Part shown: piece after piece, positions 10,349 to 63,685 of the stretch | How the letters are laid out: each line of letters begins with the position of its first letter | Numbering within the stretch: position 1 is the first letter of the stretch | Position numbers and translations under genes: made by a program | Sequence record: OR352939.1 | Source: Escherichia phage AV109 | Length of the DNA: 64,000 nucleotides | Reading direction: 5' to 3' (one strand) | Notes under the pieces: model-generated | The model's input: only the letters and a program-made list of their open reading frames with translations | Told to the model about the DNA's origin: nothing | Databases searched by the model: none

Positions 10349-10370
10349 ATGGGAGACTCCGGTCTCCCAT
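10349..10370 (+). terminator. rho-independent terminator after gene 23
   Basis: 9-bp stem ATGGGAGAC/GTCTCCCAT with UCCG loop followed by a T-rich run. Confidence 0.6.
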
Positions 10371-11411: not shown

Positions 11412-12695
11412 ATGAGTAAAATCCAAAAATTATTGCGTGAATCTACAACGTCTACTAGCAACTCAATTGGTCGCCCAAATCTCGTTGCTTTGACTCGCGC
11501 TACGACTAAATTAATATATTCTGACATTGTAGCAACACAAAGAACTAATCAACCTGTTGCTGCTTTTTATGGTATCAAATATCTTAACCCAGATAACGAA
11601 TTCACATTTAAAACCGGTGCTACTTATGCGGGTGAAGTTGGATATGTAGACCGAGAAAAAATTACTGAACTCACAGAAGAATCAAAAGTCACACTAAATA
11701 AAGGTGATTTTTTCAAATATAATAATATCGTCTATAAAGTGTTAGAAGATACACCATTTGCAGATATTCAAGAAAGTGATCTAGAATTAGCTCTTCAGAT
11801 TGCAGTCGTTCATTTAAAGGTACGGTTATTTTCAGATGCAGCGGTAACAAGCAAATTTGAAAGCTCTGGTAGCGAAATTTCTGATGCAAGATTCCAGATT
11901 AATAAATGGCAAACTTCAGTCAAATCTCGTAAACTTAAAACTGGCCTCACGGTTGAATTAGCGCAAGATTTGGAAGCGAATGGATTTGATGCCCCTAACT
12001 TCTTAGAAGATTTGCTTGCTACTGAAATGGCTGATGAAATTAATAAAGATATTCTTCAGTCTTTAATTACTGTATCAAAACGATATAAAGTTACTGGAAT
12101 TACTGACACCGGATTTATTGACTTGAGCTATGCATCCGCTCCAGAAGCAGGTCGTTCATTATATCGAATGGTGTGTGAAATGGTGTCACACATTCAAAAA
12201 GAGTCAACTTATACTGCAACGTTTTGTGTAGCCTCAGCTCGTGCAGCTGCTATTCTTGCTGCTTCTGGTTGGTTAAAACATAAGCCGGAAGATGATAAGT
12301 ATCTTTCACAAAATGCTTATGGATTCTTGGCAAATGGATTACCTCTTTACTGCGATACCAACAGTCCGTTAGATTATGTTATTGTGGGTGTTGTAGAAAA
12401 TATCGGCGAAAAAGAAATTGTAGGGTCCATCTTTTATGCTCCATACACTGAAGGAGTAGATTTAGATGACCCGGAACATGTTGGTGCATTTAAAGTTGTA
12501 GTTGATCCGGAAAGCTTGCAACCGTCTATCGGATTATTGGTTAGATACGCTTTATCAGCAAATCCTTACACAGTAGCAAAAGATGAAAAAGAAGCGAGAA
12601 TAATTGATGGCGGGGACATGGATAAAATGGCAGGACGTTCAGACTTGTCTGTTTTACTCGGTGTTAAATTGCCTAAAATTATTATAGATGAATAA
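11412..12695 (+). CDS. 24: head vertex protein (T4 gp24-like)
   Basis: 427 aa, paralogous in size and position to gp23 as in T4. Confidence 0.93.
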   Translation: MSKIQKLLRESTTSTSNSIGRPNLVALTRATTKLIYSDIVATQRTNQPVAAFYGIKYLNPDNEFTFKTGATYAGEVGYVDREKITELTEESKVTLNKGDFFKYNNIVYKVLEDTPFADIQESDLELALQIAVVHLKVRLFSDAAVTSKFESSGSEISDARFQINKWQTSVKSRKLKTGLTVELAQDLEANGFDAPNFLEDLLATEMADEINKDILQSLITVSKRYKVTGITDTGFIDLSYASAPEAGRSLYRMVCEMVSHIQKESTYTATFCVASARAAAILAASGWLKHKPEDDKYLSQNAYGFLANGLPLYCDTNSPLDYVIVGVVENIGEKEIVGSIFYAPYTEGVDLDDPEHVGAFKVVVDPESLQPSIGLLVRYALSANPYTVAKDEKEARIIDGGDMDKMAGRSDLSVLLGVKLPKIIIDE

Positions 12696-12696
12696 A

Positions 12697-12726
12697 CGAA
12701 AAAGGGACCTTACGGTCCCTTTTTCG
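12697..12726. terminator. bidirectional terminator between convergent gene 24 and rnlB
   Basis: 13-bp stem CGAAAAAGGGACC/GGTCCCTTTTTCG with 4-nt loop; A/T tracts on both sides. Confidence 0.65.
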
Positions 12727-13725
12727 TTATGATACTAATTCAATCCATGCAGGACGCAGAACATCTTGCACCATTCGGACTAATTCTTTCTTAACAAGAT
12801 TCGGATTATCAGATGATGTTAATACAATACCTTCACGAGAAGTTTCTTCCAGAATATCTTGAACAGTCAATCCCATCACTTTGCCAAAATCTTTTGGCGT
12901 TACAGTCCCAATCTTAGAAATCACATTATTAACACGATTTAATGTAACATAACAAGCTAGAACATCAAGCAAGTTTTTATCAATTTCGGTTAATGGAACC
13001 TGAGTTTTAATAGGCTTATCAGACTTTTTCTTTTCACTGAATTTAGAGTTCTTGCACTTAATAGCTACACGAGTACCGTTTGGCAGCCATTTAGGGAAAC
13101 AAGGCTTCAGAACATAACCTTCTGCCGTATTATCGCCAATAACATTAGCATCAAATACACAATTATTTGCTTCTACAAGGTCTTCTGACGCAGTAGCATT
13201 ATAAGCGGCTAAGACAGAATCAAGGTCATTTGGAATCATGATAAGAGCATCAAATGTGCCACGACCAAGCATTGGTGCCATTTTAAAACCGAATTCATTA
13301 CAGAAATCTTGCATTTCGTAATCGGTCAAATATGTATTATCACCACTTTCTGTATTGATAAGGATATCGAACACATAAAAATCTTTTTCACCGTAGTCAA
13401 CACCTTTCTGGATTCCACCACCAGCGAATTCACCGAATACTTGATATGATACTGCTCGATCTGCGTGCATTAATTCCTGAACGGCTTTAATAGCTTTATC
13501 ATACTTCTTGAGTACGATTTCATAGCCGTAAAAATCTTCTGCTGGAAGAATAGGGCCTGTGCGCTTGGCGCATGTGACGTTGTCACGTTCAATTATTAAC
13601 GAGAAGTTAGTCCCATGGATTTTCTCACGTGCTACCCAAACACCAGTAGTCAAACCATTAGTGTAGAGTTTTTCAATAAACTTAGAGTTGTAGTGGTTTT
13701 CAAGACTGCTGTATTTCTTAAACAT
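12727..13725 (-). CDS. rnlB: RNA ligase 2 (T4 Rnl2-like)
   Basis: 332 aa; N-terminus and KxHGxN nucleotidyltransferase motif (EKIHGTNFS) match recalled T4 Rnl2. Confidence 0.93.
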
Positions 13726-14366: not shown

Positions 14367-14384
14367 AAGGGGCCGAAGCCCCTT
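14367..14384 (-). terminator. stem-loop/terminator after hoc (UUCG loop in mRNA)
   Basis: 7-bp stem AAGGGGC/GCCCCTT with CGAA on plus strand, just downstream of the hoc stop. Confidence 0.5.
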
Positions 14385-16247: not shown

Positions 16248-17762
16248 ATGACTGACATTAAAGTACATTTTCATGATTTTAGTCACGTGCGCATTGAATG
16301 CGACGAAAGTACGTTTTACGAACTTCGTGACTTTTTTAGCTTTGAAGCCGATGGGTACAAATTCAACCCGCGTTACAAATATGGGAACTGGGATGGTAGA
16401 ATTCGTCTTTTAGATTACAACCGTTTGTTACCATATGGACTTGTAGGACAAATAAAAAAGTTCTGTAGCAATATGAGTTATTCTGTATGGATTGACCCTA
16501 AAATCTTTGAGACCGAAGACCTTACCAGAGAAGATTTTGACGCATGGCTTTCTAAACAAGAAATTTATTCGGGCAACGCCAAAATCGAACCACATTGGTA
16601 TCAAAAAGATGCAGTGTATGAAGGACTAGTTAATCGTCGTCGAATTTTAAACCTTCCGACATCAGCAGGTAAATCACTAATCCAAGCACTTTTAGCTCGA
16701 TATTATCTAGAGAACTATGAAGGTAAAATTCTCATTATCGTCCCTACAACAGCATTGACAACCCAGATGGCTAATGATTTTGTTGATTATCGCTTGTTTA
16801 GTCATTCGATGATTAAGAAAATTGGCGGTGGTGCTGATAAAGCAGACAAATCTAAAAACGACGCTCCAATTATTGTTGGCACATGGCAAACGGTAGTTAA
16901 GCAGCCTAAAGAATGGTTCTCTCAGTTCGGTATGATGATGAACGATGAATGCCACTTAGCAACAGGCAAAAGTATTTCTTCAATCATCGCAGGATTAAAT
17001 AATTGTATGTTTAAATTCGGTTTATCTGGCTCATTAAGAGACGGAAAAGCCAATGTAATGCAGTATGTAGGCATGTTCGGCGAAATCTTCCGTCCTGTTA
17101 GCACGTCTAAATTAATGGAAGATGGACAGGTAACTGAGCTTAAGATTAATAGTATTTTCCTTCGTTATCCGGACGAATTCACCGTTAAATTAAAAGGTAA
17201 AACATACCAAGAAGAAGTTAAAATTATTACCGGACTAAAACGTCGTACAAAGTGGATTGCTCAACTTTCGGTCAAATTGGCTAAGAAAGACGAGAACGCC
17301 TTTGTAATGTTTAAACACGTTACACACGGTAAAGAAATATTTGAAGCTATTAAAGAGCTTGGATACGAAAAAGTTTATTACGTATCAGGTGAAGTTGATA
17401 CTGAAACACGTAACGCGCTTAAAGTCATGGCAGAAAATGGTAAAGGCATTATTATTGTCGCATCATATGGAGTATTCTCTACTGGTATTTCAGTCAAGAA
17501 TCTTCATCATGTTATTTTTGCTCATGGTGTTAAATCAAAAATTATCGTACTTCAAACCGTAGGTCGTGTGCTTCGCAAGCATGGTTCTAAAGCTGTTGCT
17601 ACAGTTTGGGATCTCATCGACGATGCAGGTGTAAAACCTAAATCATTAAATACTAAAAAGAAGTATACTCATCTTAATTACTTGTTAAAACACGGTATTG
17701 ATCGTATCCAACGTTACGCTGATGAGAAATTTAACTATGTAATGAAAACAATTAATTTATAA
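16248..17762 (+). CDS. uvsW: UvsW SF2 DNA helicase
   Basis: 504 aa; Walker A-like PTSAGKS and DECH box; matches T4 UvsW in size and position. Confidence 0.93.
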   Translation: MTDIKVHFHDFSHVRIECDESTFYELRDFFSFEADGYKFNPRYKYGNWDGRIRLLDYNRLLPYGLVGQIKKFCSNMSYSVWIDPKIFETEDLTREDFDAWLSKQEIYSGNAKIEPHWYQKDAVYEGLVNRRRILNLPTSAGKSLIQALLARYYLENYEGKILIIVPTTALTTQMANDFVDYRLFSHSMIKKIGGGADKADKSKNDAPIIVGTWQTVVKQPKEWFSQFGMMMNDECHLATGKSISSIIAGLNNCMFKFGLSGSLRDGKANVMQYVGMFGEIFRPVSTSKLMEDGQVTELKINSIFLRYPDEFTVKLKGKTYQEEVKIITGLKRRTKWIAQLSVKLAKKDENAFVMFKHVTHGKEIFEAIKELGYEKVYYVSGEVDTETRNALKVMAENGKGIIIVASYGVFSTGISVKNLHHVIFAHGVKSKIIVLQTVGRVLRKHGSKAVATVWDLIDDAGVKPKSLNTKKKYTHLNYLLKHGIDRIQRYADEKFNYVMKTINL

Positions 17763-17776
17763 GGGCTTCGGCCCTT
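17761..17776 (+). terminator. UUCG-loop stem-loop between uvsW and uvsW.1
   Basis: AAGGGC-TTCG-GCCCTT inverted repeat; no T-tract, so probably an RNA structure rather than a terminator. Confidence 0.35.
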
Positions 17777-17787
17777 AGGAGATAAAA

Positions 17788-26324: not shown

Positions 26325-26347
26325 AAAGGGAGACAACGTCTCCCTTT
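26325..26347. terminator. bidirectional terminator between gene 54 and the convergent minus-strand gene
   Basis: 10-bp stem AAAGGGAGAC/GTCTCCCTTT with 3-nt loop; T/A tracts on both sides. Confidence 0.55.
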
Positions 26348-28832: not shown

Positions 28833-28850
28833 AAGAGCCCGAAGGCTCTT
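28833..28850 (-). terminator. stem-loop AAGAGCC-CGAA-GGCTCTT
   Basis: perfect 7-bp stem overlapping the stop of the small gene upstream of alt. Confidence 0.4.
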
Positions 28851-32784: not shown

Positions 32785-32822
32785 AATATTTTCCTCAAGG
32801 AGGCCGAAGCCTCCATTTAAGA

Positions 32823-33188
32823 TTAGATATCAAACTCGTTAAGAACTACATCAAAGATTGCTTCAAGATGTTCAGGTTTAGCTCGGTTACTCAGGATATG
32901 ACGAATCCAAGTTTTAACTAAGAGTTTACGATTATCACCGTTCCAACAAGGATGAGTGCCTAAATCGCGTTCACGGAAATCATCATCTAAAGCGATTTTA
33001 AAGTTGGAACCTTCCTTAGTGATTGAAAGAGTGATACCGTTTTCAAATCGCATATAAACGTAGTTAGGAGTCATGCACTGCTCGATTTCACATACTGAAC
33101 CGTTTTCATGTTTCCACAAGCAAACCATGTCGATAGAACCAGCGATACCGTTAGAAACATATTTACGTTCGAAGTTGATGTAGTTCAT
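32823..33188 (-). CDS. hypothetical protein
   Basis: 121-aa ORF with early promoter and GGAG SD upstream. Confidence 0.55.
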   Translation of the reverse strand: MNYINFERKYVSNGIAGSIDMVCLWKHENGSVCEIEQCMTPNYVYMRFENGITLSITKEGSNFKIALDDDFRERDLGTHPCWNGDNRKLLVKTWIRHILSNRAKPEHLEAIFDVVLNEFDI

Positions 33189-33229
33189 TTTATTCTCCGG
33201 TTGTTTTATTGATTAGGTGGTACAAGTCT

Positions 33230-33258
33230 ATAGTAACACATCCTACAGGAGAGTAAAC
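33230..33258 (-). promoter_or_regulatory. T4-type early promoter (-35 GTTTAC, 17-nt spacer, extended -10 TGnTACTAT)
   Basis: repeat-family promoter downstream of the terminator hairpin. Confidence 0.55.
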
Positions 33259-33294: not shown

Positions 33295-33312
33295 GGGAGA
33301 CCGAAGTCTCCC
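33295..33312 (-). terminator. terminator hairpin GGGAGAC-CGAA-GTCTCCC (UUCG loop in minus-strand RNA)
   Basis: perfect 7-bp stem followed on the minus strand by U4; exact copy of the hairpins at 50167 and 59165. Confidence 0.5.
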
Positions 33313-33317
33313 TAAAA

Positions 33318-33497
33318 TTATGCAACAACCTTTCCAAAACGAGAAGCATCATCTCGAAGAACTGCACGTGCTCTGCGCATGATCTTCTCAACGGTTTGAT
33401 TAATACGAGAGTTCGACCCACGCTTGTATCCAGCGCGTTTAGAGGTACCATCAACTTTCTTTTCAACTGCTTTCTTTGCTTTAGCTTGTTTTGCCAT
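33318..33497 (-). CDS. small basic protein (59 aa, Lys/Arg/Ala-rich)
   Basis: below ORF-track cutoff; AT-rich third codon positions, unlike the overlapping 61-aa track ORF in another frame; weak SD AAGAG. Confidence 0.4.
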   Translation of the reverse strand: MAKQAKAKKAVEKKVDGTSKRAGYKRGSNSRINQTVEKIMRRARAVLRDDASRFGKVVA

Positions 33498-41840: not shown

Positions 41841-41854
41841 GGGACCGAAGTCCC
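41841..41854 (-). terminator. stem-loop GGGAC-CGAA-GTCCC between nrdB and denA
   Basis: 5-bp GC stem; weak U-tract. Confidence 0.3.
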
Positions 41855-42361: not shown

Positions 42362-42953
42362 CGTTATGTTCGATTGAGCTCGCTAATTCTCAACCCGTTC
42401 TCTTATGAACTGCTGCATATTACTATGCAGACCAGACTATATCACAATCCCGGAGGGATTCTCCCCATTTCGAGTCGCTTGACCCTACGTCCGAAGACTA
42501 GTCGTTGAACCTTGCTTTGCAATTGTCGCCGTGCCATCGTTTATATGTCGATGGTGATAAATCTTTCTTTTCACAATATGGACAATTCAATTGAATTCTA
42601 TTTGGATTTAATTTGCATCTGTCATTATGTTTTAGATAAAACCCAGGACCTTTACCAATGTGACCGCAGAAATCACATGTGATTTCTTTTTGTGCAGGAT
42701 GGGTTCCGTTCTTAACCATTTCTAATGTTTTTGCTGATGTTCTTCCATCAGAATCTTTAGGTATAGGCCCGTTAGCATCCATCCAAATTTTTCTATAATT
42801 CAATTGTGCATCCTCTTAAAAGTATAATCATATTTATTTTATAATATACTAATTAAAGGTGCAAGCAAAACCTTGGCTGCTAGTTTTCCTATAAAGGACT
42901 TTCCAGCAATTAAAGGAGTTTTCGATAAACGTTACCGTTTAAAGGCGCATTTT
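42362..42953 (-). mobile_element. group I intron in nrdB (about 592 nt) with degenerate homing-endonuclease ORF
   Basis: NrdB reading frame interrupted by an in-frame stop right after ..YVSFA; intron core shares conserved segments with the td intron; splice sites inferred. Confidence 0.8.
42498..42803 (-). CDS. intron-encoded ORF, probable degenerate HNH homing endonuclease (I-TevIII-like remnant)
   Basis: 101 aa; N-terminal WMDANGPIPKD resembles HNH endonuclease starts but lacks an intact HNH motif; Cys-rich Zn-finger-like C-terminus. Confidence 0.55.
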   Translation of the reverse strand: MNYRKIWMDANGPIPKDSDGRTSAKTLEMVKNGTHPAQKEITCDFCGHIGKGPGFYLKHNDRCKLNPNRIQLNCPYCEKKDLSPSTYKRWHGDNCKARFND

Positions 42954-47221: not shown

Positions 47222-48237
47222 CATTATGTTCAGATAAGGTCGTTAATCTTATCCCGGAATTATATCCAGCTGCATGTCACCATGCAGAGCAGACTATATC
47301 TCCAACTTGTTAAAGCAAGTTGTCTATCGTTTCGAGTCACTTGACCCTACTCCCTAAAGGGATAGTCGTTAGGCATTTATGTAGAACCAATTCCACTTAT
47401 CAGATTTTACACGGTAAGTAACTAATCCTGATGAAATTTCAAAATGTCTAGCCGCATCGGCTGCACATTCAAAAATAATCCCATCGCATGAAATCTTTTT
47501 GATGTTAGCTGGCTTTTTGCCTTTCATCTTTTCAGATAGTTTAGTTTTAGTTTTTTCTGAATGTTTGTGATTAAAGAACGGGTTATTTTCACCTGAACGT
47601 TTTCGGCACTTTCCACAAGTATCGGCCGAAGATGGTATGCGAACACCGCATTTACAAAACTTGTGGTTTTCTGGATTCCATCGGCCATTTTTACTTCCGT
47701 GTTTACCATAAAGAGCTTTCCGACCATCAGGACCAAGCTTAAGCATCTTAGCTTTAACAGTTTCAGCTCGTTTCTTAGCAATTTCTTCTTTTAATGGATG
47801 ATTTGAAAGCACATCGCCAAAAGACGCATCAGCAATATTATATCCATTAATTTTAGAATTTAGCTCTTTAATCCAAAAATTTTCTCGTTCAATAATCAAA
47901 TCTTTCTCATATGGAATTTCTTCCAGTATAGAGCATTCAAAAACATTACCATGTTTATTAAAAGACCTTTGAAATTTTATAGAAGAGTGAACACCGTTTT
48001 CAAGGTCTTTAAAATGTCTCTTCCATCTTTTCTCAAAATCTTTAGCACTTCCAACATACACTTTACCGTTTAAAGTGTTTTTAATCTGATAAATTCCGCT
48101 TTTCATAAACACCTCTTTTTATATAGAAGTATTTATTAAAGGGTAGTCCTACAATTTAGCACGGGATTGTCTACTAGAGAGGTCCCCCGTTTAGATAGAT
48201 TACAAGTATAAGTCACCTTATACCTAGGCCTAAATTA
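47222..48237 (-). mobile_element. group I intron in td (1016 nt) carrying I-TevI
   Basis: 5' end UAAUUUAGGCCUAGGUAUAAGGUGACUUAUACUUGUAAUCUAUCUAAACGGGG matches the recalled T4 td intron; length 1016 as in T4. Confidence 0.92.
47369..48106 (-). CDS. I-TevI: GIY-YIG homing endonuclease I-TevI (intron-encoded)
   Basis: 245 aa from the ATG at 48106 (track starts at an upstream GTG); near-identical to recalled T4 I-TevI. Confidence 0.93.
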   Translation of the reverse strand: MKSGIYQIKNTLNGKVYVGSAKDFEKRWKRHFKDLENGVHSSIKFQRSFNKHGNVFECSILEEIPYEKDLIIERENFWIKELNSKINGYNIADASFGDVLSNHPLKEEIAKKRAETVKAKMLKLGPDGRKALYGKHGSKNGRWNPENHKFCKCGVRIPSSADTCGKCRKRSGENNPFFNHKHSEKTKTKLSEKMKGKKPANIKKISCDGIIFECAADAARHFEISSGLVTYRVKSDKWNWFYINA

Positions 48238-50106: not shown

Positions 50107-50135
50107 ATACTAACACATCCAGGGAAGAAGTAAAC
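50107..50135 (-). promoter_or_regulatory. T4-type early promoter (-35 GTTTAC, 17-nt spacer, extended -10 TGnTAGTAT)
   Basis: repeat-family promoter downstream of the gene 32 terminator. Confidence 0.55.
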
Positions 50136-50166: not shown

Positions 50167-50184
50167 GGGAGACCGAAGTCTCCC
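50167..50184 (-). terminator. terminator hairpin GGGAGAC-CGAA-GTCTCCC after gene 32
   Basis: perfect 7-bp stem, UUCG loop in the mRNA, U4 downstream. Confidence 0.55.
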
Positions 50185-50190
50185 AATTTA

Positions 50191-51090
50191 TTATAGACCA
50201 GCTAACAGGTCATCGAGGTCGCCATCGTCAGAAGACGAGGAACTCATGAAGTCATCTTCAGTTTTTGCAGAACTAAAGGCTTCCATGTCTTTATCAAAAT
50301 CGTCAAGGTCAGAAGCAACTTTATCTGCAACAGAAGCTGCTGCGGCTGCTGCACCACCAAGAGCGGCAGTACCAAGAACTTGATTAAATTTAGTATTCAA
50401 TTCTTCAAACGATTTGAACTTATCTTTAGAAGTCATTTCAGAAAGGTCGACCATTTGTTCGAACAATTCTTTCTGGAAAGATTCATCATCAATGTTTGGA
50501 ATCGCAGATTGATTCAGGAATTTAGATTCGTCGTAGTTACTGAAACCAGAAACCTGTTTAACTTTCAGCACGAAGTTAGCACCTTCCCATGGGCAAGTTA
50601 CATCAACAGGAGTTTCACCCATTTCAGTATCGACTGCAATCATTGCATTGATTTTGTCCCAAATCTTTTTACCGAAACGATATTTGAATACTTTACCTTC
50701 ATTATCTGGAGCTTGAGGGTCTTTAACAACCAGAATATTAGCCCAATAAGAAGTTTTACGTTTCAGTTGAGAATATTCAGTTTTGTTGGTATTGTACAGG
50801 TCATTTTTACTAATGTACTGACATACAGGACAAGAGTCATAATCACCGTGTGTAGATGAACAGGTTTCAATATACCATTTGCCATTTTTCTTGAACCCGT
50901 GGTTAACAAGAATTGCAAACGGAAGTGCGTCATCTGTTTTTGCCGGCAGGAAACGAATTACCGCTTGGCCATTACCGGATGCGTCGAGTTTCAGCTTCCA
51001 TTCACCTTTATCTTCTGAAGAGAAACCTTTGTTACCATTCAGTTTAGCCATCTGAGCTGCGAGGTCTGCGGTACTTTTACGTTTAAACAT
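50191..51090 (-). CDS. 32: single-stranded DNA-binding protein (T4 gp32-like)
   Basis: 299 aa; near-identical to recalled T4 gp32, including the acidic Ser/Asp-rich C-terminus. Confidence 0.97.
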
Positions 51091-58031: not shown

Positions 58032-59159
58032 ATGGAAAAATTTATGGCTAAGTTTGGACAAGGATACGTCCAAACGCCATTTTTATCGGAAAGCAATTCA
58101 GTACGATTTAAATTAAGCATAGCGGGCTCTTGCCCGCTATCAACATCTCCTGCTTATATTAAGTTCCAGGATAATCCACTTGGGTCCCAGGTTTTTTCCG
58201 TTGGATTAAACGTTCGTGTAATAAATCCTACAACGGGTGCAGTAGTTGAATCTAAGACATATAATTTCTCTACTGAAAACGACGCCACGTCAAGTGCATT
58301 TGTTACTTTCATGGACACATATGCTTCAAATTTTATATTTGCTCTTGTTACTAACGCTAAAACAAACTTTCCGCCAGAAGTTCTTGCATGGTTTAATAAA
58401 GCCGGAAGTTCTGCTATTCCATTAGCTCAACAAGTTTTAAATATAGTGGACATTTCTTATTCGGCATTTTATATTTCTGGTAAGAATGCTATAGCACTAG
58501 AACATATTAAGTATAGTAATAAGAAAACTTCAACCGACTATAGTACACCACTTGATGTTGTGTACGACACGATCGATGATATTGGTGCTACCGGCTTCCC
58601 TAGTCGTACGTACGAATCGACAGACACATTTTTATCTGCTGTTGGAGGTACTAATAACGAAATTAAAAGGATGCCTACAACATCCCTTATTACACCTCTC
58701 GCTGGGTATAAATTGAAGCCTGGAGATTTCCTTTATATGAAATTCCAACTAATGGCAGATGCTGATTTGTTAGCACAAGGGACGACACGACTTTCTATTC
58801 GTTTCTTTAAATCTCCTTCTACTTCACCTATTTCATTTAAGGATACAAACTTTGATGGGGCTGCAGGTGAATGGAAGATATATGAAGACTACATAGAAAT
58901 TCCTGCCGGTGCTGACGGGTTCACGATTTATTGTTATCGTACGGCCCCAGTCGGGCAAGGCGGATTAAGAAACGTTATATTCACTGAAGTGTCATGTAAT
59001 GGAAGCGTTTCAAAACCTGCTGAGTTTGGTATAAATGGTATTCGTGTAAATTATGTTTCAGAATCTTTAAGTGCCCCAGACATAATGACATTACCTACTC
59101 AATCTTCAACTGATACCGGTAAGGTATTTGGACAAGAATTTAAAGAAGCATCAGAATAA
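58032..59159 (+). CDS. 35: long tail fibre hinge protein (T4 gp35-like)
   Basis: 375 aa directly after gene 34. Confidence 0.9.
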   Translation: MEKFMAKFGQGYVQTPFLSESNSVRFKLSIAGSCPLSTSPAYIKFQDNPLGSQVFSVGLNVRVINPTTGAVVESKTYNFSTENDATSSAFVTFMDTYASNFIFALVTNAKTNFPPEVLAWFNKAGSSAIPLAQQVLNIVDISYSAFYISGKNAIALEHIKYSNKKTSTDYSTPLDVVYDTIDDIGATGFPSRTYESTDTFLSAVGGTNNEIKRMPTTSLITPLAGYKLKPGDFLYMKFQLMADADLLAQGTTRLSIRFFKSPSTSPISFKDTNFDGAAGEWKIYEDYIEIPAGADGFTIYCYRTAPVGQGGLRNVIFTEVSCNGSVSKPAEFGINGIRVNYVSESLSAPDIMTLPTQSSTDTGKVFGQEFKEASE

Positions 59160-59164
59160 ATTTA

Positions 59165-59182
59165 GGGAGACCGAAGTCTCCC
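59165..59182 (+). terminator. rho-independent terminator after gene 35 (GGGAGAC-CGAA-GTCTCCC + T5)
   Basis: perfect 7-bp stem followed by ATTTTTGT. Confidence 0.6.
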
Positions 59183-59189
59183 ATTTTTG

Positions 59190-59197
59190 TATAAATA
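59190..59197 (+). promoter_or_regulatory. T4-type late promoter TATAAATA for gene 36
   Basis: exact TATAAATA 25 nt upstream of the gene 36 ATG. Confidence 0.7.
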
Positions 59198-63667: not shown

Positions 63668-63685
63668 AGAGGGCTTCGGCCCTCT
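63668..63685 (+). terminator. UUCG-loop stem-loop AGAGGGC-TTCG-GCCCTCT between genes 37 and 38
   Basis: perfect 7-bp stem right after the gene 37 stop, T5 run a few nt downstream. Confidence 0.45.

Follow-up and report, generated by a model that had tools for sequence, protein, structure and literature searches.

Hairpins with a C(UUCG)G tetraloop were reportedly described by Tuerk et al. in 1988 from the intercistronic regions of phage T4 mRNA. These T4 hairpins have been summarised elsewhere (PMC4371310). A second described system is the PeSL (promoter-early stem-loop), in which a stem-loop terminator is followed by an early promoter (TTTACW-N17-TAYWAT in T4/PST) and then by a Shine-Dalgarno sequence and an ATG start codon (PMC4122927). 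The terminator function of the PeSL stem-loop was tested experimentally in RB49 (Arbiol et al. 2010, PMC2839356). PeSLs adjoin variable gene slots, and crossovers have been mapped between their -10 element and the ATG (PMC4122927, PMC2839356).

Here we analysed a stretch of 64,000 nucleotides from Escherichia phage AV109 (OR352939.1), hereafter the window, in which one 18-nt hairpin sequence recurs at three places. By analogy with the described systems, we consider it probable (about 0.8) that the 18-mer is a promoter-coupled hairpin of the T-even C(UUCG)G intercistronic class, acting as a terminator or attenuator and as a stabiliser of mRNA 3′ ends. The feature is ordinary and of an already known kind; only two points are mildly new, an allele with an inverted loop between genes 35 and 36 and a single stem shared by several sites in Mosigvirus.

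Genome Context and Properties of the 18-mer

Sequence comparison showed that the window is almost identical to Escherichia phage AV114 (OR352944.1), with the first substitution at base 366 and a 1-nt indel, located between about 10.4 and 33.3 kb, that offsets the coordinates around 33 kb. Judged by its sequence, the phage is a Mosigvirus of the Tevenvirinae, i.e., an RB69-like T-even coliphage, and its genes are given here RB69's T4-style names. Several product names in the AV114 GenBank record look wrong: the 59-aa gp30.9 is labelled '1,4-alpha-glucan branching enzyme', gp31.1 'tail fibers protein', and about a dozen unrelated ORFs in a run 'thioredoxin'.

Three exact copies of GGGAGACCGAAGTCTCCC were found on the plus strand of the window, at 33295-33312 (copy 1), 50167-50184 (copy 2), and 59165-59182 (copy 3). 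There was no match in any of 100 dinucleotide-preserving shuffles, and none is expected by chance. These copies had been reported in an earlier, sequence-only reading of the window, which also placed the second after gene 32 and the third after gene 35; both the copies and the gene assignments proved right. A motif count across the complete AV114 genome, a step proposed in the same reading, gave three exact copies and no further ones, plus a 6-bp version after gene 41.

In RNA the 18-mer reads GGGAGAC-UUCG-GUCUCCC and folds into a 7-bp, G+C-rich stem with a C(UUCG)G tetraloop, which is very stable. It had been taken for a perfect palindrome usable on either strand, but the reverse complement of the 18-mer differs from it in the loop (CGAA vs. 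TTCG): palindromy is confined to the 7-bp arms, and what is conserved is the UUCG orientation at the RNA level. On DNA, the loop is CGAA on the plus strand and UUCG on the minus strand, and all three copies share one DNA orientation, though the surrounding genes run opposite ways. The predicted folding energy of the isolated hairpin is -12.0 kcal/mol with the UUCG loop, -11.1 kcal/mol with CGAA, and -13.0 kcal/mol with UCCG, and hairpins folded in context gave z-scores from -2.9 to -4.8.

All copies lie between annotated genes, 5–6 nt downstream of a stop codon in sense orientation, with a short U-run and then a promoter behind each. The U-runs comprise 4–5 U, compared with 6 or more in the T4 equivalents. 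In a terminator scan that called for at least 5 T within the 8 nt after the stem, copies 2 (50167) and 3 (59165) passed and copy 1 failed. A reading of the 18-mer as a restriction site (GGTCTC lies inside the hairpin) was dropped, since T-even DNA is modified and orthologous stems do not contain the site.

Searches of the whole window against Rfam at the gathering threshold returned no matches, and a search of the 42–60 kb region at E-values up to 1 gave no match at the hairpins; no Rfam family covers the UUCG hairpin sites. As a side observation, the group I intron model RF00028 matched two minus-strand regions, 47270-47500 and 42413-42650, with 36 bits (E about 4e-6), which is less than its gathering score. 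Both are situated inside the split genes td and nrdB and adjoin homing-endonuclease ORFs.

Copies 1 and 2 Are Followed by Early Promoters

Copy 1 (33295..33312, minus strand) is located 5 nt after the stop codon of the minus-strand gene 30.9 (33318-33320), and the mRNA reads GGGAGAC-UUCG-GUCUCCC followed by UUUUG. Its stem is extendable by one A-U pair, and in context it folds with -19.2 kcal/mol (z = -4.8). The hairpin is followed by UUUUGUGC; once the first U pairs with the upstream A, the sequence falls short of the scan rule, and copy 1 is skipped because only 4 U follow the stem. RB69 carries the identical hairpin at this site, and among 150 Mosigvirus records, 108 reach an identity of 99% or more in the 80-nt region. 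Downstream lies a T4-type early promoter (33230..33258, minus strand; -35 GTTTAC at 33258-33253, a 17-nt spacer, -10 TACTAT at 33235-33230), and gene 30.7 (ATG 33188) comes next, preceded by a Shine-Dalgarno sequence. In RB69, T4, and ChristianSchoenbein, gene 30.8 is present right after this cassette; it is absent from the window and from TuIa. The junction of this presence/absence difference is a 62-nt direct repeat (33183-33244 in the window), which covers the stretch from the -10 of the early promoter through leader and Shine-Dalgarno sequence to the ATG.

Copy 2 (50167..50184, minus strand) follows the stop codon of gene 32 (50191-50193) by 6 nt; this minus-strand gene encodes the single-stranded DNA-binding protein. 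The mRNA again reads GGGAGAC-UUCG-GUCUCCC, then UUUUGAGUAU. Copies 1 and 2 both have UUUUG directly after the stem and an early promoter about 30 nt further on. For copy 2 this T4-type promoter lies at 50107..50135 (minus strand; -35 GTTTAC at 50135-50130, a 17-nt spacer, -10 TAGTAT at 50112-50107) and precedes a frd.2-like ORF (ATG 50077), with a Shine-Dalgarno sequence between them. The hairpin is identical in RB69 and in ATK47, where a terminator was annotated by ARNold. The slot after the gene 32 cassette is occupied by frd.3 in T4 and by ORF245c in RB69, while in the window and ATK47 the frd.2-like ORF follows directly. In the orthologous place T4 has GGGGACC-CUAGA-GGUCCCC-UUUUUUAUUUU, with a U6 run, and then an early promoter. 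This T4 hairpin is the classic terminator of gene 32 that the omega interposon employs.

By their layout, copies 1 and 2 are identified as terminator plus early-promoter cassettes of PeSL type, and copy 3 as a terminator plus late-promoter junction. Stem-loop, early promoter, Shine-Dalgarno sequence, and ATG succeed one another at copies 1 and 2, with an A/T-rich region, as in the described PeSLs (Arbiol et al. 2010; Comeau et al. 2014). At copy 3 a late promoter follows instead, and two variants discussed below (10351 and 26325) lie at convergent gene ends; these three are therefore no PeSLs. The link of PeSLs to gene gain and loss is also seen here, in the gene 30.8 slot and in the variable ORF after the gene 32 cassette. 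The crossover zone of PeSL mini-circles, from the -10 to the ATG, is also where the 30.8 junction falls. PeSLs were described for RB49/phi1, T4/PST, and KVP40/nt-1, a set that does not include RB69-like phages, and their stem consensus differs. The early-promoter pattern matched 32 times on the minus strand vs. 4 times on the plus strand, and many of the matches share TATAGACCTATCAAC. A specific homology between the two early cassettes beyond the hairpin and TTTTG was rejected, as it amounts to a generic early-promoter/leader consensus. A similarity common to about 30 promoters is therefore not evidence of duplication.

Copy 3 Carries an Inverted Loop at the Gene 35/36 Junction

Copy 3 (59165..59182, plus strand) is positioned 5 nt after the stop codon of the plus-strand gene 35 (59157-59159) and 39 nt before gene 36. 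The late mRNA reads GGGAGAC-CGAA-GUCUCCC, then AUUUUUG, and a late promoter, TATAAATA (59190..59197, plus strand), lies between the hairpin and gene 36 (ATG 59222). The identity of the third copy with the other two thus stands at the DNA level and is lost in mRNA sense, where it has CGAA against UUCG; ATK47 and, judged by identity band, apparently most relatives have TTCG.

In ATK47 and in one IMG/VR contig, the flanks of this site are base-for-base identical to the window and the loop alone differs (TTCG, plus strand), and Shigella phage phi25-307 has TTCA as the loop at 35/36. Over the 80-nt region around copy 3, an identity of at least 99% was observed in only 5 of 108 phage records (AV114, AV115, AV118, and G2285 among the matches listed). 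A further 71 of the 108 records fell at 95–99%, most of them at exactly 95.0%, which equals four mismatches in 80 nt; the mismatches were shown to be the loop only in ATK47, and the other relatives were judged by identity band. Most of the 108 relatives thus appear to carry UUCG at 35/36. These comparisons indicate that copy 3 is a rare, recent loop inversion, a derived allele TTCG -> CGAA, and that the 59165 copy is DNA-identical to the other two because its loop inverted in the window's lineage. In most relatives, all these sites would then encode one RNA hairpin in mRNA sense. No sign of loop inversions at the 33295 and 50167 sites was seen in the identity distributions of relatives.

Spacer inversion between inverted-repeat arms via template switching is documented (PMC8604942; PMC8794818). 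Template switching during replication is most likely also behind the loop of copy 3: the 4-nt loop would have inverted between the perfect inverted-repeat arms. As in the documented cases, the loop is the exact reverse complement, the 7-bp arms are perfect, and the flanks are unchanged. Unlike in those cases, we infer the mechanism, and short-patch ectopic conversion, with the two early-region copies of equal DNA orientation as donors, is an alternative that would give the same product. An ectopic replacement of copy 3 had been considered when RB69, which differs in both the outer pair and the loop, was the sole comparison; this parsimony argument was dropped because the 18 nt of ATK47 and the IMG/VR contig depart from copy 3 in nothing but the inverted loop. 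The predicted cost of CGAA relative to UUCG is about 0.9 kcal/mol. Because this cost is small and the U-run is unchanged, the CGAA allele is probably nearly neutral. It persists in several isolates, and the UUCG loop is therefore not indispensable at 35/36.

Related Hairpins in the Window

Single-change variants and other tetraloop stems had been listed at 10349, 14367, 26325, 41841, 17761, and 63668; all exist, the first starting at 10351 and the fifth at 17760 in our coordinates. Our census adds two C(UUCG)G hairpins, at 28833 and 32799.

Two of the variants share the arms of the 18-mer. GGGAGAC-UCCG-GUCUCCC (10351..10368, plus strand), with 1 mismatch, is followed by UUCUUGUUUCU and has a 9-bp stem when an AU/AU extension is included. 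It lies after gene 23, encoding the major capsid protein, which is convergent with segD. The exact UUCG 18-mer occupies this site in RB69 and in several phages from other genera, and T4 has GGGAACC-UUCG-GGUUCCC. The second, AAAGGGAGAC-AAC-GTCTCCCTTT (26325..26347), has a 3-nt loop and is situated between the convergent genes 54 (plus) and alt.-3 (minus). It was terminator-like on the minus strand in the scan and is conserved in RB69; flanked by an A-run and a T-run, it is therefore probably a bidirectional terminator. A perfect 15-bp stem at 12695-12728, AACGAAAAAGGGACC-ttac-GGTCCCTTTTTCGTT, is the longest hairpin in the window. It lies between the convergent genes 24 (plus) and rnlB (minus) and looks like a bidirectional terminator too.

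Among the hairpins with other arms, four are on the minus strand. AAGGGGC-UUCG-GCCCCUU (14367..14384; plus strand AAGGGGC-cgaa-GCCCCTT) follows hoc. This hairpin is identical in T4, RB69, and the window, though the genera differ at most other terminator stems. AAGAGCC-UUCG-GGCUCUU, then UUUGG (28833..28850), was found after alt.1, GGAGGC-UUCG-GCCUCC (32799..32814) after gene 30.7, and the short GGGAC-UUCG-GUCCC (41841..41854; plus strand GGGAC-cgaa-GTCCC) between nrdB and denA. The remaining two are plus-strand intercistronic hairpins with no U-run: TAAGGGC-UUCG-GCCCUUA (17760..17777) comes after uvsW and directly adjoins the GGAG Shine-Dalgarno sequence of uvsW.1, and AGAGGGC-UUCG-GCCCUCU (63668..63685) comes after gene 37 and is followed by AAGGA, the Shine-Dalgarno sequence of the next gene. 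Lacking a U-run and abutting a Shine-Dalgarno sequence, both are probably not terminators and by their context would rather play a role in RNA stability or translation. This class of hairpin is therefore not always a terminator.

Outside the window, at the gp8/gp9 junction of AV114 (159481-159498), we noticed GGGAGCC-ttcg-GGCTCCC followed by ATTTTTGTAT. The downstream bases are the same as at 35/36, which suggests a recurring terminator plus late-promoter cassette.

Conservation of the Hairpin in RNA

In the AV114 genome, 20 perfect tetraloop hairpins have a UUCG or CGAA loop and a stem of 6 bp or more, compared with 0.43 in composition-matched shuffles. Nineteen of these 20 strong hairpins have UUCG in the local mRNA sense, copy 3 being the sole exception, and this strong sense-strand bias points to selection on RNA. 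A UUCG loop closed by a C-G pair in mRNA sense is present at 33295 and 50167 and absent at 59165, where the TTCG allele of the relatives provides it.

The 35/36 junction could be followed over a wide range of phages. The hairpin there is AGGAGAC-UUCG-GUCUCCU in RB69, GGGACCC-UUCG-GGUUCCC in T4, GGAGCC-UUCG-GGCUCC in Marfa, AGCCC-UUCG-GGGCU in Aeromonas phage PS49, and GGACC-GCAA-GGUCC in Acinetobacter phage DLP1, and in all five it is followed by a U-run and then by a TATAAATA-type late promoter. Compensatory double changes were detected in 4 of 5 pairs of the 5-bp cores, and 96.7% of cells were paired. Covariation was counted on ungapped 14-nt cores because MAFFT alignment of the full 35/36 spacers misplaced gaps in the 3′ arm.

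Annotations in the GenBank records of relatives, which are predictions, agree in position: terminators are given at 35/36 in ATK47 and G2285, at gene 32 in ATK47, NBG1, and PhAPEC2, and at 30.9 in MM02. In TuIa the copy 1 site is annotated as a stem_loop, with -35, -10, and RBS signals.

T4 and the phage of the window belong to the same subfamily, and their hairpins share the loop, the closing pair, and the sites after genes 23, 30.9, 32, and 35; in both a U-run and then a promoter follow, and the hoc hairpin is identical in sequence. In contrast to T4, where the stem differs at every site, the window reuses the GGGAGAC stem; its U-runs are shorter, and its 35/36 copy has CGAA in the mRNA.

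Proposed Function

Based on the analogy with the T4 gene 32 terminator, the T4 C(UUCG)G hairpins, and the RB49 PeSL stem-loop (PMC2839356), we propose that the hairpins act in both termination and stabilisation. RNA polymerase would pass the hairpin and the short U-run, where a part of the polymerases would terminate, so that the element works as an intrinsic terminator or attenuator. Once transcripts have been released or processed, the hairpin would shield their 3′ ends from 3′-to-5′ exonucleases. The promoter right after each copy could then restart transcription for the next gene; it is of the T4 early type (GTTTAC-17-TAnTAT) after 30.9 and 32, and the late TATAAATA after 35. The idea of a shared terminator or mRNA-stability module, put forward in the sequence-only reading, is supported by the position after stop codons, the U-runs, the sense bias (19/20), the compensatory stems, and the relatives' annotations. 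As regards termination, it probably does not extend to two of the variants listed with it, 17760 and 63668, which have no U-run and adjoin a Shine-Dalgarno sequence. In the searchable literature, we found no mapping of transcript 3′ ends or termination for an AV109-type phage, T4, or RB69.

How much of this function is termination can be weighed from the same features. Since the U-runs are short and the scan does not list copy 1, termination may be weak and RNA stabilisation could be the main role. In a stronger form of this argument, the hairpins do not terminate at all and are only 3′-end protectors, processing barriers, or translation spacers in polycistronic transcripts. T-even genes are read through in long transcripts, and the UUCG hairpins at 17760 and 63668, which abut Shine-Dalgarno sequences without a U-run, speak for it along with the short U-runs and the failure of copy 1 under a simple terminator rule. 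Yet copies 2 and 3 pass that rule and the orthologous T4 hairpins have long U-runs. Elsewhere, a T-run (5 or more T within the 8 nt behind the hairpin in UUCG sense) follows 107 of the 122 IMG/VR occurrences of the 18-mer among the matches listed. A promoter right behind each copy is, moreover, what would be expected if transcription must restart, and we regard a complete lack of termination as decidedly improbable. Far less probable still is that the stem serves as a specific binding or cleavage site for a protein, such as the RegB nuclease, which cuts at GGAG, or another regulator. The 5′ arm does contain GGAG, and the exact sequence is kept across genera at gene 23 and 35/36, but GGAG is buried within a very stable stem, and the orthologous hairpins of T4, Marfa, PS49, and DLP1 have unrelated stem sequences. 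We thus retain the terminator/attenuator and 3′-stabiliser reading.

Origin of the Repeated Stem

The exact reuse of the 18-mer had been attributed to duplication rather than convergence. This is not established, as at least 120 IMG/VR stretches from unrelated viral contigs, with G+C contents of 0.30–0.63 and unrelated flanks, contain the 18-mer too. A permuted, composition-matched comparator, GGAGGAC-UUCG-GUCCUCC, occurs in 108 IMG/VR stretches, and GGGAGAC made up 2 of the 16 other 7-bp C(UUCG)G hairpins in loci that were not selected for the 18-mer. In addition, Escherichia phage EcS1 (175,437 bp), a T4-like phage of another genus, has the 18-mer at three or more sites, namely after gene 23, at 35/36, and at the holin/asiA junction. 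All of this would fit an independent origin of the three or four identical hairpins, each converging on a single favoured, near-optimal terminator hairpin without any copying. Against such convergence stand the Mosigvirus sites, which lie after genes 23, 30.9, 32, and 35; near-copies are present behind genes 41 and 54. In RB69 the exact RNA 18-mer is found behind genes 23, 30.9, and 32; ATK47-type Mosigviruses carry it behind gene 35 as well, while T4 has four different stems at its four orthologous sites. With a stem popularity of at most about 0.1, four independent matches would have a chance of roughly 1 in 1000, a rough estimate from a small sample. Convergence is therefore possible but on the doubtful side, and the one stem at four Mosigvirus sites vs. 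the differing T4 stems hints at homogenisation.

An explanation at the DNA level would make the hairpin a recombination linker, a mobile PeSL-type cassette that moves between sites by copying or conversion and brings about gene shuffling, with termination as a side function. Copies 1 and 2 show the full PeSL anatomy, the presence or absence of gene 30.8 maps exactly to the copy 1 cassette, at the 62-nt repeat and in the same zone as the PeSL mini-circle crossovers, and the slot after the gene 32 cassette differs among T4, RB69, and the window; the contrast between the one Mosigvirus stem and the four T4 stems counts on this side too. However, the observed junction is in the promoter/leader part, outside the hairpin, and cassette similarity beyond the hairpin and TTTTG is that of any early promoter. 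At 7 bp, the arms would be very short substrates for homologous exchange, the strong bias to the sense strand speaks for selection at the RNA level, and the same 18-mer arises in many unrelated viruses. A role as a linker in this sense is unlikely. A further, speculative idea, to which we give a similarly low probability, is that GGGAGAC-UUCG is more than a favoured terminator, namely a 'standard part' whose identity across four to six Mosigvirus sites and at least three EcS1 sites is maintained by copy-conversion or template switching between them.

Significance

If concerted evolution were true, the arms would represent a micro-homology for the exchange of modules at late-gene junctions and early PeSL cassettes alike, and this DNA-level process would have left a visible footprint in the inverted loop at 59165. 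With one stem in Mosigvirus vs. four in T4, these sites offer a simple test case for concerted evolution vs. convergence of terminators. The natural UUCG/CGAA allele pair at 35/36 provides ready isolates for measuring the share of the tetraloop in termination and RNA stability, and the hairpins could serve as compact, well-behaved terminators. For the biology of the RB69-like phages, the hairpins mark transcription-unit boundaries and have little significance beyond annotation.
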